Of a stretch of 64,000 bases of DNA, positions 3,606 through 12,452 are shown piece by piece. The DNA is taken from the IMG/VR virus record IMGVR_UViG_2565956713_000001. The stretch is one strand, 5' to 3'. The stretch comes from a virus. Its lineage: Duplodnaviria; Heunggongvirae; Uroviricota; Caudoviricetes. How positions within the stretch are numbered: position 1 is the stretch's first letter; the number at the start of each line of letters is the position of its first letter. The notes beneath the pieces are model-generated. The model did not search any database and was not told the DNA's origin. It saw only the letters and a list, made by a program, of their open reading frames with translations. Made by a program: the position numbers and the translations under genes.

Positions 3606-3961
3606 AGCACCACGTCCTGTGTGATAGTTATATCCCTGATACGAATGGATATTTTCAACTTATCAAAAGCATCTCCCTCGGCTACTGACAAGCCAGAAAT
3701 CGGTATGTCAGGTAAATCTACCGTCAGTTTTTGCAACAGCATTGCCTCAACCGCAATTTGAACATGCGACAAGTTGGTCGGTTCGTGTTTAAACTGCGGT
3801 AAAACATTGCCCCATGACGGATCTCCGTATACCTCACCCTGATAAGTGTTTAGCCACTCATATAAACGAGCGCCCCAGGCCTCCTCCTGGGACTCATACG
3901 TTTTTACGCCGGATAACTCCAGCGTCAGCAAAGGATCAATTTCGTTATTGTTGGCCATCAA
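3602..3961 (-). CDS. baseplate wedge protein, gp25/GPW-like (putative)
   Basis: 119-aa ORF of typical GPW size, between the tape-measure gene and the J-like gene, translationally coupled. Confidence 0.35.
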   Translation of the reverse strand: MMANNNEIDPLLTLELSGVKTYESQEEAWGARLYEWLNTYQGEVYGDPSWGNVLPQFKHEPTNLSHVQIAVEAMLLQKLTVDLPDIPISGLSVAEGDAFDKLKISIRIRDITITQDVVL

Positions 3962-6900
3962 TCAACTCTCGCGTAGTCATTCATCAACGGATCATCAATT
4001 GACAGTGGTACCGTGCGCATAACGCCCGGCTGAGGCGTGCTGACCTTTACGACAGTTCCCTGGCCTTTCGCCGAGTCTTTGGTGTGCTCTTCAATCCTGG
4101 CAAGCAATGAGGTCATCTGCGCAAACAGCCGCTTCGTTTCACCATCAAGTGAAACGGTATTATCAGCCAACTGCATTGTCGGCTTGGCACCGGAACCGCC
4201 AAGGTCACTAATAACCTGCCCGTCTATCTGCATACGACCGGTTGGTTGCTGCAAATCGTTGGCGGCAGTCGTCACCTGGGACGTGGAGGCTGGTTCAGGC
4301 GCATTATTTTTCCGCATCCCCGGCGAGTTGCGGAGTTTATCGAATAGTCCATCAATCCCCATTTGTGCGCCGAGTTGGTCAAAGTAACTTGAGTTGCTGG
4401 CCACCGGACGCGCCTCTTCAACTGGCATCGGAGTATCAACATACACATTGCCAGCTGCTGTTGCGGTCCCCTTCCCTCGTGCACGTTCTTCGAGCGTTCC
4501 CTGAACGACTTCCCGACGCATACCCCGGCCATTCATGAATTTGTTGACCAGATCGTTAACGCCAACAGCATTGCCGATTTTGTCTACCAGACCGCCTTTC
4601 TCAAACGGGCTATCACCAGGGGTAAACGCCAGACCAGTAGACTGATCGATAACGGCGTTATCAGGCAGTTGTCCCCTCACTCCATATTGCGCCCCACCCT
4701 GTGCTCCTGCCCCAGGTGTATAGATTTCACCACCTAAATAGCGAGCACGATGAGTATTGACCTTGATCGCGTACTCACGGTTTTCCTTCGATAAGTCACC
4801 GGTGCCTTTTTTCCACTTATTAATAGTGCCAAACCCAGCGTTATATGCAGTGATGGCCTCGTTTAAGTCTCCATTGGCTTGCTTCAGATACTTGCTCATG
4901 AGAAGAGCCGCAGCTTCTGCCGATTTCACAGGATCAAACGATTCACCTTCAGCTAAGCCAGTCTCTTCACGAGCAATGCCCGTGAACTGAAACATTCCTA
5001 GAGCACCAGTTTGGGATTTTGCGTATGGATTACCACCAGATTCAGTTGCAGCAATCGCGTAAAGAGTGCCTTCAGGAAGACCATATTTATTCTCTAGTTC
5101 AGCAAAATACGGAGCTAACTTATCGAGATTTGCCTTACCTTCAGCGCCAAGGCTTCCGACTTTTACATCTAAGTTGCCATTATTGTAGGTATCAGCAGCT
5201 TTCTGAATGTCATTCCCAGTGCCGGTGGTATTACGCGACGATGATGACGAGCTATTTTGTCCAATAGCTGAATCAATTTTCCGCACCGCGCTATTGCCCG
5301 TTTCTACGGCATTTGCATTGATAATCTGATTGGCAGTTTCTTTAACTGTTTTATTGCTATCTTTCGCCGTGTCCAGTGCCGCATTTATCACGCGGGTAGC
5401 AATATTAGTCTGTTTAGCATCGGATTCAGTTTTAGAATCAGATGTCTCCTGGTGGCTATTAACCGGAGCTTTTAACTCTGGAGTGATTTCTTTTGCATTA
5501 GCCTCGCCGATCGGATTGGGTATTTTTGATACAATCATTGCCGCAGGGGTATTTTTAACGGCATCAACCGCTGCATCTAATGCTTTACCGGGTAAATTTT
5601 TAACCCCATCCCAAATATTACCAGCCGCCTCTTTAATGTGTTTCCCTGGGTTCTTAATGAAGTCAATTGCACTATCAATTGCATCACTGAAAACCTGTTT
5701 CAGGTTATCGACAGTAAAGAAGTCTTTTATGGCATCCAGCTTTTCAAGCAACTTATTAGATGTATCGCTAAACCATGCTGAAACAGCATCACCAATCTTT
5801 GCTGTGTAATCATCGAACTTGGTAGAAATGGTGTCGCCAAGGTTAGAAATATATGTTTCTAAGTTGGTAACCCCGCTATCAATGGCCTGGGCAATACTTT
5901 CCGTCGAAAATGATTGCAACATATTGCCGATATCCTCAAATCCAAGTGATTTGAGAACATCACCAATAGCACTGCTAATACCAGATACCAGTCCCCCCAA
6001 ATCAAGAACATTGGCTAACGTATAAGCGGCTTTTTGCTGGAATGATGGATCTTGTCCTGATTTAAGCCCAAACGCTCGACGTTGCGCTTCTGTATCATTC
6101 CAACCGGTTACCGCATCATAAATACCTCCAGCCACTGTGCCGACTAGGGGAATTGCGCGTAACGCCCCTTTACCAACTGCCTTTAATCCAAGTTTACCTG
6201 CTGCCCGGGCAGCCAAATCTCCGCCTTCATGAGCGAGAGTCTTCTTGCCACCACCGCGTAGCATTCCTACAAGTTTCTTTGCCCCCAGAGCGCCAAAAGC
6301 GAGTGCTCCAGCTTTTTTCAGCATGCCACGCCCCATTAACAACGACGCGACGCCACCGGCCCCCTTCCCTAACAGGCTAAATAGTTTGGACAGCAAGCCG
6401 CCCTTCTTTTTACCGGTGTTTTTGGCTATCTGATCAAGGGCGCGGAGAATCTTGTCATTGCCCTCTTTAATTTCGCTGGTCTGCTCCTGAAGTTCCTGAA
6501 CCGTCCGTTTTTGGGTGTTAACCTGAACGACATCGGCACTATTTTGCGATTTACGCCTAAAAAAACCTTTTCTACGGCTGTTATCGTCATTGCCACGAAT
6601 CACATCGGCAATAGACTTTCTGGCACCATTAAGCGATCCACCAACTTCTTTTGATATCCCGCCAAGCTCCTTCCCTGCTGCCCACAATGGACCAGCAACG
6701 GCATAACCTAACGCATCGACGGCACGAGTCTCTGAAGGGTTACCTATGCCTTCAGCTACTTTTGACAGTTTTTTTAATAAACCTGATTCAGCATTTAGAC
6801 GCTCATCATCCTCTTTGCGCCTAGCCTTTTCAGCACGTTCAGCACGGGCATCTTCCGCTGCGGCCTTACTCCCTGACTTTCCAATAAAACGACCACGCGC

Positions 6901-7350
6901 ATCGCGTTGGTTTTGGCTTTTTTGCGCACCGCCTTTTTGACCGAACATTTCGTGAGCGTGTTCGGCTGCTTCGGTCCGTTGCGCCTTTACATCTTCTGTT
7001 ATAGCCTTCTTGCGTCGTTTTTTACCCTTTCGCGTAGTTGATTTGGCCTGCGGTTCCTGTAGAGCAACATCCTCCTGAACTACACGAGAAACGTCCCCTA
7101 AATTAAGCCGTTTCATTGCCTCAACAATAGGGTCCACTGATGGCGCATTGGCCACAAAGTCTGGCCGGGAATTTTCGATTGTGCGATTTAATGCCGACAC
7201 ACTGCGAGAGACAGGATCAACTGTAGCAACTCGCCCCCCTTTCAAATCTTCAACGGCTTCCCGAATACCTGCAAGCTCTTCCAGCTCTTTTGCGCTGGCG
7301 GTTTCAACCGTCCTTATCACATCGTCAATGTTGGCGTTTTTTCTTTCCAT
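3958..7350 (-). CDS. sit: tail tape-measure protein with soluble lytic transglycosylase domain (P1 Sit-like)
   Basis: 1130 aa with long Ala/Lys/Gly-rich helical segments and an SLT domain (GLPEGTLYAIAATESGGNPYAKSQTGALGMFQF...ITAYNAGFG). Confidence 0.8.
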   Translation of the reverse strand: MERKNANIDDVIRTVETASAKELEELAGIREAVEDLKGGRVATVDPVSRSVSALNRTIENSRPDFVANAPSVDPIVEAMKRLNLGDVSRVVQEDVALQEPQAKSTTRKGKKRRKKAITEDVKAQRTEAAEHAHEMFGQKGGAQKSQNQRDARGRFIGKSGSKAAAEDARAERAEKARRKEDDERLNAESGLLKKLSKVAEGIGNPSETRAVDALGYAVAGPLWAAGKELGGISKEVGGSLNGARKSIADVIRGNDDNSRRKGFFRRKSQNSADVVQVNTQKRTVQELQEQTSEIKEGNDKILRALDQIAKNTGKKKGGLLSKLFSLLGKGAGGVASLLMGRGMLKKAGALAFGALGAKKLVGMLRGGGKKTLAHEGGDLAARAAGKLGLKAVGKGALRAIPLVGTVAGGIYDAVTGWNDTEAQRRAFGLKSGQDPSFQQKAAYTLANVLDLGGLVSGISSAIGDVLKSLGFEDIGNMLQSFSTESIAQAIDSGVTNLETYISNLGDTISTKFDDYTAKIGDAVSAWFSDTSNKLLEKLDAIKDFFTVDNLKQVFSDAIDSAIDFIKNPGKHIKEAAGNIWDGVKNLPGKALDAAVDAVKNTPAAMIVSKIPNPIGEANAKEITPELKAPVNSHQETSDSKTESDAKQTNIATRVINAALDTAKDSNKTVKETANQIINANAVETGNSAVRKIDSAIGQNSSSSSSRNTTGTGNDIQKAADTYNNGNLDVKVGSLGAEGKANLDKLAPYFAELENKYGLPEGTLYAIAATESGGNPYAKSQTGALGMFQFTGIAREETGLAEGESFDPVKSAEAAALLMSKYLKQANGDLNEAITAYNAGFGTINKWKKGTGDLSKENREYAIKVNTHRARYLGGEIYTPGAGAQGGAQYGVRGQLPDNAVIDQSTGLAFTPGDSPFEKGGLVDKIGNAVGVNDLVNKFMNGRGMRREVVQGTLEERARGKGTATAAGNVYVDTPMPVEEARPVASNSSYFDQLGAQMGIDGLFDKLRNSPGMRKNNAPEPASTSQVTTAANDLQQPTGRMQIDGQVISDLGGSGAKPTMQLADNTVSLDGETKRLFAQMTSLLARIEEHTKDSAKGQGTVVKVSTPQPGVMRTVPLSIDDPLMNDYARVD

Positions 7351-8949: not shown

Positions 8950-9540
<591 letters not shown>

Positions 9541-9574
9541 TTAACCGATTCTACGAGTAGTCATTTGTGACAGG

Positions 9575-10078
9575 TCATTTTGCGCGCTTCAGGCAGCCAT
9601 CTTCAGGTGCCGCGTTGAAAAGCTCTGCGGCCTTACGTAGCGTAAATGTTGCGATTTTTTTTCCGTCTACGTATGCATCGAATGTTTTAACTTCCATATC
9701 AGGGGTATCTGACCAAAAACCATACCAGTAACTATCACCCACAGAGGAACCGATAGAACTGATAGGATATTCATCATCACCAACTTTCAGCGTTATTTGT
9801 TCTTTTTTAGCATCAAATGACTCACCGCCAGGTTCTGTTTTCATGAGAGTGAGTAGTCGTGTTCCTACTTGATTGGGATCCGTATTATTAAATCCAACAT
9901 CGCACTCAAATGTAAGCGTATAATTATCTTTGCTGGAAACAGCATAAGAACGAACACCATGAGTCTCGCCGGTTGACCATTTGCTTACATTTGCCATTGA
10001 CGAAAAAGGAGTAAGCAAAGCAAGAATTAGAAAAAATCGTTTGATGCGCATTAATTTATCTCCTTTGGATATTAACAA
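9575..10078 (-). CDS. secreted protein with signal peptide (sim-region gene)
   Basis: N-terminal signal peptide (MRIKRFFLILALLTPFSSMA) after the first in-frame Met; sits between the tail operon and the immunity-I module. Confidence 0.4.
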   Translation of the reverse strand: MLISKGDKLMRIKRFFLILALLTPFSSMANVSKWSTGETHGVRSYAVSSKDNYTLTFECDVGFNNTDPNQVGTRLLTLMKTEPGGESFDAKKEQITLKVGDDEYPISSIGSSVGDSYWYGFWSDTPDMEVKTFDAYVDGKKIATFTLRKAAELFNAAPEDGCLKRAK

Positions 10079-10115
10079 TTATTATCAATATTTTAATTAA
10101 TTACCCATCATATAT

Positions 10116-10790
10116 TTACCATTCATAGGGTAAATTAAGCGCTTTTAAACCTTGCTGGAAGGTATTAAGTGAGCCGTTCTTTTGTTGTTCCATTTTTTCG
10201 CGCGCCGCTTTCTCATACTGCTCCATCCGTTGGTTATACTCTTGCAATTCTTCTGGAGAGAGGTTTCCCATTGGGGAGTTTGTACCCGGCCCCCTGGCCC
10301 GCTCTTCAAGCGTACCCTGAACGTTTTGATGGCGCATTCCTGGGGCATTTCTGATTGAGTCAATGCCATTTCTTCCAACATCTTCTTTATTAACGGCATT
10401 GCTCGCCACCAGCACCCCCCAGCTAGGGATAGCAAAATCAGGAGCGGTTTCGCATGCCTTTACCATATAATCGAAAGAGCTTCGATTGATCTCGTTTGCG
10501 TCGGGATTTAATAGGCGAGAATATTGATATTTAGCATTTTCGTTGGTTGCGACTTTATACAGTTCTTGCTGCACCATCGCTTCAGAAAGTTTAAGGCGTT
10601 TCATATCTGACAGTAACTTCTTGCGCATGGATTCGTCTTGACTGACAGCAAAGCCGTAAACGTGCCCAAGGTATTTCGTATAATCGGTACAAATCTCCTT
10701 TACGCTTGATGCTGCATTAACAGTCCCAGCCATAAATAATAACGGTAGTAATAGTTTTCTCATTATAACCTCACCTGCCTTATAACTCAT
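10116..10790 (-). CDS. Sim-like periplasmic superinfection-exclusion protein (putative)
   Basis: Signal peptide (MRKLLLPLLFMAGTVNA); ~25 kDa; position matches the P1 sim locus next to immI; C-terminal motif shared with Sit (see findings). Confidence 0.45.
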   Translation of the reverse strand: MSYKAGEVIMRKLLLPLLFMAGTVNAASSVKEICTDYTKYLGHVYGFAVSQDESMRKKLLSDMKRLKLSEAMVQQELYKVATNENAKYQYSRLLNPDANEINRSSFDYMVKACETAPDFAIPSWGVLVASNAVNKEDVGRNGIDSIRNAPGMRHQNVQGTLEERARGPGTNSPMGNLSPEELQEYNQRMEQYEKAAREKMEQQKNGSLNTFQQGLKALNLPYEW

Positions 10791-10859
10791 TTAGGGTACA
10801 TATTTTCGCCTTTAAAAAAAAGAGGTTATTAGATCCAATTGTGTATTTATTAAGCACAC

Positions 10860-10876
10860 AATGCTCTAATAAATTT
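10860..10876 (+). promoter_or_regulatory. C1 repressor operator (AATGCTCTAATAAATTT), Op51-like
   Basis: 16/17 match to the asymmetric C1 operator consensus ATTGCTCTAATAAATTT, upstream of the c4-icd-ant module. Confidence 0.7.
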
Positions 10877-11059
10877 GTATTTTTAAGTCGCGAATGCTAT
10901 CTTTTCGCATCATATTGACCTTTTAATCGTTCAGGCTTATAGTTCCGCCGTCGTAGCAAATTCTGCGACCGGGTTTAGCAGCCTGAATGATTGTGCGGAC
11001 AGCCGCAGATATCCGATATTGCGGTATTTTTGTGTCCGTAAAACCGCGTTACGCCCAAA

Positions 11060-11140
11060 TTATGGTGGGGCGTGATGGGGAGGCTTCGGCCTGCTGGTTT
11101 CACAATCGCCAGTCTGCTAACCCCGTCACGTCCTGCCACC
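11060..11140 (+). ncRNA. c4-like antisense repressor RNA (approximate boundaries)
   Basis: ORF-free leader between operator and icd. Short elements (CACAATC, CTGCTAA) are complementary to GTTTAGCAGC / TGATTGTG, which occur twice, the second copy overlapping the icd ribosome-binding site. Confidence 0.3.
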
Positions 11141-11190
11141 TGTTTAGCAGCGGGTAGCAGGTTGTTAAACCTGATTGTGAGGCCGTAACT

Positions 11191-11412
11191 ATGGTTAATG
11201 CCAATCCTTGCGCACGCCCAGAATTCATCTGGCGTTTCTATTCCTGTAAAAAACACCACTATCACTTCGTTATCGCAGCAACTGAAGACGAAGCACGCTC
11301 TCAATTGCCTGATGGCCCCTGCATTTTTACTGCCCGTTTTTCAACTAACTCGCGCAATTCACTTAGTTACTGGAGCCTCCCCTTCTCTGCCGACGTTCAG
11401 GGGGGTTTATGA
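11191..11412 (+). CDS. icd: Icd-like protein (73 aa)
   Basis: 73-aa ORF with GAGG ribosome-binding site; stop overlaps the ant start (ATGA); paralog of the 73-aa ORF at 62488. Confidence 0.6.
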   Translation: MVNANPCARPEFIWRFYSCKKHHYHFVIAATEDEARSQLPDGPCIFTARFSTNSRNSLSYWSLPFSADVQGGL

Positions 11413-12452
11413 AAAAACCTCTCGTCACCCGTAATGACATAGCCGAAGCGATCGCCCTGCATACTGCCTGTATACCGACACGGGAGATCCCCGGCGCAAT
11501 TGCCAACTATTTCATGATAACCAGGCGTTTTTATACCCGAACAGATAAGGCTGTGATCAACAGGCTACTGATAGCCGAGATCAGGGATTATTTGATTGAA
11601 CAAGGACGTCTACGTTACGCAACGGTGGCAGCAGAAATGAGAAAGGAGGCACATAGAATGACCAGTAATAATTTGAATGTTAAAAAACCAGCACCTGTTG
11701 CTTCAGCAACGCCAGCACCAGCCGTGAATGTCATCCCCACCACCGGAGACACAATCGACAGCCTGACACTGTTAAAGATGGTCAATGAAGCGCGTAAGTT
11801 ATGTGGGGAACCAGAGGTTCGGAACAACAAATTCATCGAAAAAATACTCGACGAATTAGAAGGTGAGGACGGTTACACAAAAAGTGCAACCGTGCCGCCA
11901 GGTGGCGGTACGCCTATGGTTGTCATAACCATGACCTACAAACAAGCCCTGCGAGTCGCCGCGCGCGAGTCAAAAGCGGTCCGCCGTTCGCTGATCGACA
12001 AACTGGAAGAATTACAGCAGGCAAACTCCCCTACCCCATCGATCCCCCAAACATTACCAGAAGCCCTACGCCTGGCTGCCGAGTTGGCAGAACAGAAAAT
12101 GCATCTGGAACAACAGCTGGTGGCCGCAGCACCTAAAGTCGATTTTGCCGACCGGGTATCAGTGGCTAAAGGGATCCTGATTGGGAATTTTGCAAAGGTC
12201 GTTGGACTTAAGCAAAACGCCCTTTTCTCATGGTTGCGCCAGAACGGCATTCTCATGGCTTTTGGTGCGCGCAAAAACGTACCGCGCCAGCAGTACATTA
12301 ACGCCGGGTATTTCACGGTGAAAGAAGTGGTGCTGGATGATGAAAATGGCTATCAGATACGGCTGACGCCACAATTAACGGGTAAAGGCCAGCAGTGGTT
12401 AACTCGCAAGCTACTTGATGCTGGTTTGTTAAAACCAGTAGCAATAGGTTAA
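11409..12452 (+). CDS. ant: antirepressor Ant
   Basis: 347 aa; C-terminal KilAC antirepressor domain (DFADRVSVAKGILIGNFAKVVGL...GKGQQWL). Confidence 0.7.
   Translation: MKKPLVTRNDIAEAIALHTACIPTREIPGAIANYFMITRRFYTRTDKAVINRLLIAEIRDYLIEQGRLRYATVAAEMRKEAHRMTSNNLNVKKPAPVASATPAPAVNVIPTTGDTIDSLTLLKMVNEARKLCGEPEVRNNKFIEKILDELEGEDGYTKSATVPPGGGTPMVVITMTYKQALRVAARESKAVRRSLIDKLEELQQANSPTPSIPQTLPEALRLAAELAEQKMHLEQQLVAAAPKVDFADRVSVAKGILIGNFAKVVGLKQNALFSWLRQNGILMAFGARKNVPRQQYINAGYFTVKEVVLDDENGYQIRLTPQLTGKGQQWLTRKLLDAGLLKPVAIG

Follow-up and report, generated by a model that had tools for sequence, protein, structure and literature searches.

Two questions are raised by the sim locus of the P1-like phage-plasmid (Punavirus) examined here. 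Namely, which gene occupies the site where P1 carries simC and simB, and why does its product share a stretch of sequence with Sit, the tape-measure protein of the same element? The DNA analysed, hereafter the window, is a 64,000-nucleotide stretch of the IMG/VR virus record IMGVR_UViG_2565956713_000001 and comprises the tail/baseplate and immunity-I part of the element. Along its minus strand, in order of decreasing coordinates, lie the c4/icd/ant region, two small genes, pmgC, tub, pmgB, sit, pmgA, and bplA. The gene in question, ORF224, is located in the sim locus, between pmgC and the c4/icd/ant immunity region (Table 1).

In the part of PMC8546580 that cites Devlin (1982) and Kliem & Dreiseikelmann (1989), the sim region of P1 is reported to prevent DNA injection by superinfecting phage. 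It is the position of ORF224 in this locus, together with the predicted export of its product, that suggests an exclusion function.

ORF224 and the cassettes of the sim locus

The best phage match to window positions 9500-11400 was Escherichia phage vB_EcoM-Ro157c2YLVW (97.4%, full length); P1 and P7 match this interval at its flanks only. P1 DNA matches positions 10624-11600 (96% identity) and 9000-9568, and the 1055 bp between these stretches are the place of simC and simB in P1. The site flanked by the late promoter LPsit and the c4 C1 operator was found to hold three alternative cassettes: SimA plus a YfjT-like gene (window); simB plus simC (P1); and upf50.0 plus upf50.5 (P7). Their left breakpoint is common to within 5 bp. 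The GC content of the window cassette is 0.42 vs 0.477 for the whole window. The proteins encoded by the window and P7 cassettes possess signal-peptide-like N-termini and, in our own reading, the products of P1 simB and simC appear to start with similar hydrophobic stretches.

Table 1. Features of the window discussed in the text (window coordinates unless a locus is named).
Feature	Position	Strand	Remarks
sit, tape-measure protein with lytic transglycosylase domain (1130 aa)	3958..7350	-	phrog_2533, 1-1130 of 1130; PF01464, E 4.6e-27
Sit SLT domain (residues 748-857)	4780-5109	-	PF01464
Sit motif 1 segment (residues 927-969), NAVGVNDLVNKFMNGRGMRREVVQGTLEERARGKGTATAAGNV	4444..4572	-	BLASTP; low pLDDT
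Sit motif 2, GIDGLFDKLRNSPGMR	4312..4359	-	Shorter second copy of the upstream half of the motif
Replaceable sim-locus cassette	9569..10623	-	P1: simC and simB instead, simA stub remains
P7 replacement	9574-10861		upf50.0/upf50.5 instead
YfjT-family gene	9575..10078	-	PF27224, phrog_3429; directly downstream of ORF224; likely start 10051
ORF224, full-length SimA-family gene	10116..10790	-	phrog_3933 ('simA domain protein'), E 4.8e-137
P1 simA, 5' remnant of the 215/224-aa gene	10624-10790; L001 2853-3011	-	
Sit-homologous segment of ORF224 (residues 131-177), NAVNKEDVGRNGIDSIRNAPGMRHQNVQGTLEERARGPGTNSPMGNL	10260..10400	-	pLDDT <50 across residues 139-175
Core of the ORF224 segment, NAPGMRHQNVQGTLEERARGPG	10284-10349	-	

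The match of ORF224 to phrog_3933 covers the full profile, and homologues of this protein are named 'simA domain protein' in some sources. Translation probably starts at the second ATG, located at 10763 (MRKLLL..., 215 aa), with GGTGAGG ahead of it. The encoded protein consists of a signal-peptide-like N-terminus, a helical N-domain (approximately residues 30-130), the motif shared with Sit, and a C-terminal helix. Its N-terminus, MRKLLLPLLFMAGTVNA followed by ASS, looks like a Sec signal peptide when read from the sequence rather than by a dedicated predictor. Also, two cysteines, C34 and C113, are invariant in the SimA family, which fits a periplasmic disulfide. These features are in line with the periplasmic location proposed in a preliminary description of this DNA, and SimA may be regarded as an accessory protein of P1-like phage-plasmids that is exported and probably resides in the periplasm.

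The SimA protein of P1 has 52 aa, of which residues 1-45 are identical to residues 1-45 of ORF224. The rest of the gene is replaced in P1 by simC/simB, so that P1 simA is a remnant, whose product possesses neither the N-domain nor the motif. ORF224 represents the full-length gene, of which P1 retains the 52-codon stub annotated as simA. The intact gene was found in the window and in about 80 complete E. coli plasmids. This calls for a correction of annotations: P1 simA is to be described as a gene remnant, and the 'hypothetical protein' entries of the plasmids as its intact form. With P1 simA being a 5' remnant, the P1 annotation 'putative superimmunity accessory function' describes a truncated gene.

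The exclusion phenotype of P1 is said to have been mapped to SimC by Maillou & Dreiseikelmann in 1990. Homology of ORF224 to SimC, the experimentally defined exclusion protein, was rejected (BLASTP against the 264-aa P1 SimC, best E 29), which leaves the earlier label 'Sim-like' without a basis in detectable similarity. A relationship of residues 34-118 to PTP-like phytase (PF14566) was rejected as well. The score was 26.4 bits vs a gathering cut-off of 27, the catalytic HCxxGxxR loop (CX5R) is absent, C113 is followed by ETAPDF, and the AlphaFold2 model is all-helical. Searches with PADLOC and NCBIfam gave no matches for ORF224 or its YfjT-like partner.

An alternative frame of 96 codons is open in window 10145-10435 on the minus strand and overlaps the 3' half of ORF224. 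Several 205-aa database 'homologues' from read-archive assemblies shift into this frame at different points; they were discarded as not being real variants and are most likely assembly errors.

The sequence AATGCTCTAATAAATTT (window 10860-10876) lies where the P1 record has the C1 operator Oc4. This position is just upstream of ORF224 and adjoins the equivalent of the predicted P1 PsimA promoter, so the prophage repressor might influence SimA expression. A promoter scan upstream of ORF224 revealed no strong sigma-70 match.

The YfjT-family partner protein has a signal-peptide-like N-terminus similar to that of ORF224. A SimA-family gene is followed by a YfjT-family gene in all six long loci with called genes (6/6), and the two products may work together. 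The partner is related to yfjT of the E. coli K-12 prophage CP4-57.

The segment in common with Sit

Since Sit supplies the cell-wall-cutting activity of the P1 tail (PMC9024508), the part of the protein around its SLT domain has to enter the periplasm. The C-terminal third of the protein was not resolved in the cryo-EM/virion structures of P1 (PMC12810830). The first copy of the motif starts 70 residues past the end of the SLT domain. Both the SLT domain and the motif, to its end, are covered by the alignment of phrog_13449, a phage transglycosylase profile of 269 positions, to Sit residues 746-970.

The minus strand of the window translates to GIDSIRNAPGMRHQNVQGTLEERARGPGT at positions 10281-10367 and to MNGRGMRREVVQGTLEERARGKGT at positions 4465-4536; ORF224 contains NGIDSIRNAPGMRHQNVQGTLEERARGPGT. 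The identity of 16 of 20 residues between GMRHQNVQGTLEERARGPGT and GMRREVVQGTLEERARGKGT, on which the preliminary description was built, was reproduced for the core. Pairwise alignment extended the similarity beyond what had been described, to a 47-residue segment in which ORF224 residues 131-177 and Sit residues 927-969 share 23/47 positions (BLASTP E 7e-9). The Smith-Waterman score was 101 vs 40.1 ± 5.6 (maximum 74) in 2000 shuffles (Gumbel P ~6e-7). Among the 283 window ORFs of at least 70 aa, Sit was the sole non-self match of ORF224 (E 1.9e-7). PHROG profiles cross-match at the same positions both ways: ORF224 with the Sit family phrog_2533 (E 9e-8); and Sit with phrog_3933 (E 8e-6). ORF224 matches only positions 929-972 of phrog_2533, and therefore has a segment in common with Sit without being a member of the Sit family. 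The similarity between the two segments is well above chance.

The second copy of the motif in Sit was also confirmed, but it begins 36 residues after the end of the first one and not about 45, as had been stated. Taken alone, it shares 8 of 14 residues with ORF224 (E 0.35). The internal duplication of Sit involves the helix-N-x-x-G-M-R half of the motif, with the copies 68 residues apart. Among the loci examined, motif 2 was seen in Sit of the E. coli P1 group. Two copies, separated by about 75 residues, also exist in P0047, a very distant Sit of 1367 aa; a single copy is present in D6-like Sit proteins.

The reading of this similarity that we favour, tentatively, is that SimA is a periplasmic mimic of a linear motif of Sit, which would interfere with the entry of P1-like genomes.

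The specificity of the motif was assessed with a 49-position profile built from six SimA and Sit segments, which was compared with 1.84 billion representative proteins (E <=0.001). Only 11 matches were obtained, of which seven were clusters (four of Sit and three of SimA), three were fragments of such clusters, and one was a repeat protein unrelated to them. The motif is thus essentially restricted to the Sit and SimA families. No match was found in Pfam or among PDB sequences at E values up to 10. We take the QGTLEERA part to resemble the peptidoglycan-binding helix of OmpA-like proteins (NxxLSxxRA), but no OmpA-family match to the motif was detected.

The motif is conserved in homologues of both proteins, contrary to the outcome that the preliminary description had named as refuting its proposal. 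The Sit segment is invariant across the E. coli P1 group, whichever sim cassette is present, and reads KF[ML]N[SA][RP]GMRH[EQ].VQGTLA[ED]RAYG.GT in D6-like Sit proteins of Salmonella and Klebsiella. In Sit relatives of 33-44% identity (P0043, P0047), G-M-R, G, R-A, and G are invariant, and G, M, R, G, R, and G are so across 12 Sit relatives. All members of the SimA family keep N-[AS]-[PR]-G-[MV]-R-[HQT]-Q. The window type also possesses the second half of the motif, QG[TS][LM].[ES]RA.G.G, as do P0017/L054, P0018/L004, P0041/L087, and the distant P0045/L089.

In other SimA lineages this second half is missing and the core runs straight into a two-cysteine tail; many SimA alleles possess the N-x-x-G-M-R-H/Q-Q core only, without the QGTLEERARG half. 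The SimA proteins P0017 and P0041 combine the full motif with the cysteine tail, so this is probably the ancestral layout. A common 172-aa allele ends four residues past the motif. As judged from these alignments, the constant unit of SimA is the N-domain plus the motif, and the C-terminal tails vary. In some Salmonella relatives of SimA (P0020; L006, 10001-10741), two tandem two-cysteine C-terminal modules replace the QGTLEERARG half.

This layout is compatible with another view, according to which the segment serves as an address label that targets both proteins to one envelope site, such as peptidoglycan or an inner-membrane complex. The activity of SimA would then reside in its N-domain and would perhaps not be directed against Sit; it might provide some other lysogenic-conversion function. 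The N-domain, which a pure decoy could do without, exceeds the other parts of SimA in both length and conservation (about 60 invariant positions); the tails past the motif are swapped freely; and some Sit proteins carry two copies of the motif, a frequent trait of repeated binding modules. However, the motif profile matches no known binding domain or solved structure, and the confinement of the motif to two phage families is unusual for a general envelope-binding module. We consider this view unlikely.

The structure models place the motif in regions of low confidence. The AlphaFold2 model of SimA (mean pLDDT 55.9) has a helical N-domain at residues 30-130 (pLDDT about 60-79), followed by the motif (residues 139-175, pLDDT <50) and a C-terminal helix. 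In the model of Sit residues 740-1130 (mean pLDDT 52.0), the SLT domain reaches 80-93, while nearly everything past residue 873, both motifs included, stays below 50 (motif about 30). In both proteins the motif probably lies in a flexible region, where a short linear motif would be expected, although both models are of low confidence overall and therefore point to disorder only weakly. Accordingly worded, SimA probably consists of a helical, probably disulfide-bonded N-domain and a flexible Sit-homologous segment. Packing of the motif onto the SLT domain was considered and was not seen in the Sit model. A Foldseek search of the SimA model against PDB gave no match at E <=0.001 and yielded generic helical bundles only.

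A flexible segment located exactly where the SimA tails diverge could also be a processing site, with the G-M-R segment cleaved by one protease that matures or trims both proteins. There is precedent for this, since the tape-measure proteins of other phages, gpH of lambda and pb2 of T5, are cleaved near the C-terminus. Nevertheless, the approximately 25 conserved residues far exceed a typical cleavage site. With Sit being assembled in the cytoplasm and SimA being exported, a protease common to both would have to act on ejected Sit in the periplasm. Moreover, the P1 virion proteome paper reports no processing of Sit (PMC9024508). We regard common processing as highly improbable.

The age of the segment was examined at the codon level. 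In the window, 17 of 26 aligned residues are identical; 10 of these 17 are encoded by different codons, and only 52 of 78 nucleotides agree. The earlier statement that the DNA is similar too thus does not hold beyond the level that the identical residues dictate. The same codon pattern was found in four other lineages. The use of different codons at identical residues marks the segment as old and as preserved by selection acting at the protein level. The synonymous differences in most identical codons of all five lineages rule out both a recent copying of DNA and a gene conversion between the two genes. The wording 'copied from Sit' goes beyond the data, which show neither the direction nor a recent date of transfer; it is not supported because the segment is present in the most divergent members of both families and synonymous sites look saturated.

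An old transfer may, in principle, account for the similarity by itself. The segment would then be a relic of illegitimate recombination from sit to simA or the reverse, each copy being kept for reasons of its own protein. This would suit the mosaic nature of P1-like genomes and the sim locus as a recombination hot spot, as well as the loss of half of the motif in several SimA lineages. It accords poorly with residues that stay identical while synonymous sites look saturated, which implies purifying selection on the same residues in both copies. Also, the same positions are invariant in both families over a deep divergence, which is hard to explain without a common constraint. A mere relic is thus quite improbable.

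Distribution and co-variation of SimA and Sit

Relatives of SimA occur on 85-128-kb non-mobilizable plasmids or phage contigs (P1/D6-like), which also encode a motif-bearing Sit. Among 5426 complete E. coli genomes, 251 match the ORF224 gene, 81 of them over at least 80% of its length, and 248 of the 252 matching places are on plasmids. In D6-like loci the SimA gene is located between pmgC and the immunity region, as in the window. One 94.4-kb contig carries a distant SimA (L089) and a distant Sit (L093; ~41% identical to P1 Sit) about 16 kb apart. The SimA gene of this element is not at the pmgC-c4 position, so the association of the two genes survives a change in gene order. No relatives of the distant SimA turned up in a metagenome scan.

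The survey of 78 Sit-anchored viral loci revealed 19 with full simA, 10 with the short allele, and 12 with the P1-type stub; the rest had none within the flank. SimA is an accessory gene, and many elements with a motif-bearing Sit, including P1 and P7, do not possess the full form. This speaks against the proposed mimicry, as does the restriction of many SimA alleles to the core of the motif. Two short contigs with this E. coli phage gene (L013, L014) have been assigned to metagenome-assembled genomes labelled Paenibacillus and Bacillota, and a Sit fragment (P0034) to Bacillus altitudinis; these assignments are probably binning or contamination errors.

A direct interaction of SimA with Sit would predict co-variation of their motifs within the same genome. 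Some apparent lineage matches were recognized, with NAPGMRHQ being common to SimA and Sit of L087, L006, and L089/93, GSMA to those of L089/93, and ERARG to those of the P1 group. In permutations of same-genome pairs, co-variation was not significant for the core (eight lineages, P = 0.26 and 0.12) or for the extended motif (five lineages, P = 0.05 and 0.09). Same-genome matching is suggestive at most.

These data bear on the view that SimA is a direct trans-inhibitor, which would bind incoming Sit either at the SLT domain or at the docking site of the motif in or between Sit molecules, much as T4 Spackle inhibits the gp5 tail lysozyme. The position of the Sit motif 70 residues past the SLT domain and their joint coverage by phrog_13449 would suit such an action, as would the hint of lineage matching in GSMA (distant element) and ERARG (P1 group), with P = 0.05. 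Against this stand the Sit model, in which the motif is not packed on the SLT domain and differs from it strongly in confidence (pLDDT about 30 vs 80-93), and the non-significant co-variation of the core. Direct inhibition of Sit is, in our opinion, quite unlikely.

Proposed role of SimA and comparison with known exclusion systems

The mimicry of the Sit motif by SimA, which we tentatively prefer, can be pictured as follows. The transglycosylase of Sit acts on the cell wall and, consequently, the region of Sit just after the SLT domain would also be periplasmic during infection. There, the motif would engage a partner, which might be a host envelope component, another copy of Sit, or another tail-tip protein. 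SimA, if resident in the periplasm of the lysogen, would present the same motif and would either occupy this partner or co-assemble with incoming Sit. As an outcome, the genome entry of superinfecting P1-like phages would be blocked. The decoy or competition mechanism suggested in the preliminary description is thus a reasonable hypothesis. The more specific form of this proposal, in which SimA mimics an essential motif of Sit, competes for its partner, and excludes all phages whose Sit depends on this motif, is doubtful.

Should mimicry prove true, the C-terminal region of Sit would make a specific motif-mediated contact in the course of P1 genome entry, and SimA could be used as a bait for the partner. 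Such a block would add to the means by which prophages are known to prevent entry, and the target phage would have difficulty in evading it. Mimicry might, in addition, contribute to the patterns of incompatibility among P1-like phage-plasmids. We found these elements in about 4.6% of complete E. coli genomes. They are known to carry resistance genes (PMC9603915). Irrespective of the mechanism, a motif common only to Sit and a protein of an exclusion locus singles out ~25 specific residues, which can be addressed by mutagenesis, pull-downs, or the prediction of complexes. Neither the shared segment nor the truncation of simA was found to be described in the searchable literature.

Several exclusion proteins of other phages resemble SimA in one respect or another. 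Spackle (Sp) of phage T4 is a periplasmic inhibitor of the gp5 tail lysozyme and binds the enzyme domain. Like the proposed SimA, it is a small exported protein with periplasmic action on the cell-wall-degrading component of an incoming tail. The two proteins, however, are not homologous, and the corresponding contact of SimA with the SLT domain was not seen in the AlphaFold2 model. Gp15 of HK97 is an exclusion protein that acts on the tape-measure protein. The same mode of action was described for Ltp of Streptococcus phage TP-J34 (PMC3952083). Both are envelope proteins of prophages that block DNA entry after adsorption, as proposed here for SimA, with a specificity set by the tape-measure protein of the incoming phage. 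They differ from SimA in being a membrane protein and a lipoprotein, respectively, of siphophages, with no reported mimicry of the tape-measure sequence. We know of no sequence shared with the target in T4 Imm, Spackle, HK97 gp15, or TP-J34 Ltp.

The simABC region of P1 (GenBank AF234172) occupies the same locus as ORF224, between pmgC and c4. Nevertheless, exclusion by P1 is attributed to SimC, which is dissimilar to ORF224, and the place of simB and simC is taken by a YfjT-like gene in the window. Imm of phage T4, a superinfection exclusion protein, binds the tape-measure protein gp29 (bioRxiv 10.64898/2026.03.06.709160), and may serve as a precedent for the role proposed here. Imm and the proposed SimA would thus both be phage-encoded envelope proteins that stop genome entry via the tape-measure protein. 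Imm, however, is a multi-helix inner-membrane protein that is not reported to share sequence with its target, while SimA, which bears no sequence relation to Imm, is apparently soluble and exported and has a segment in common with its presumed target. If mimicry is true, a prophage carrying simA would block entry by presenting a copy of the target's own motif instead of binding the target.
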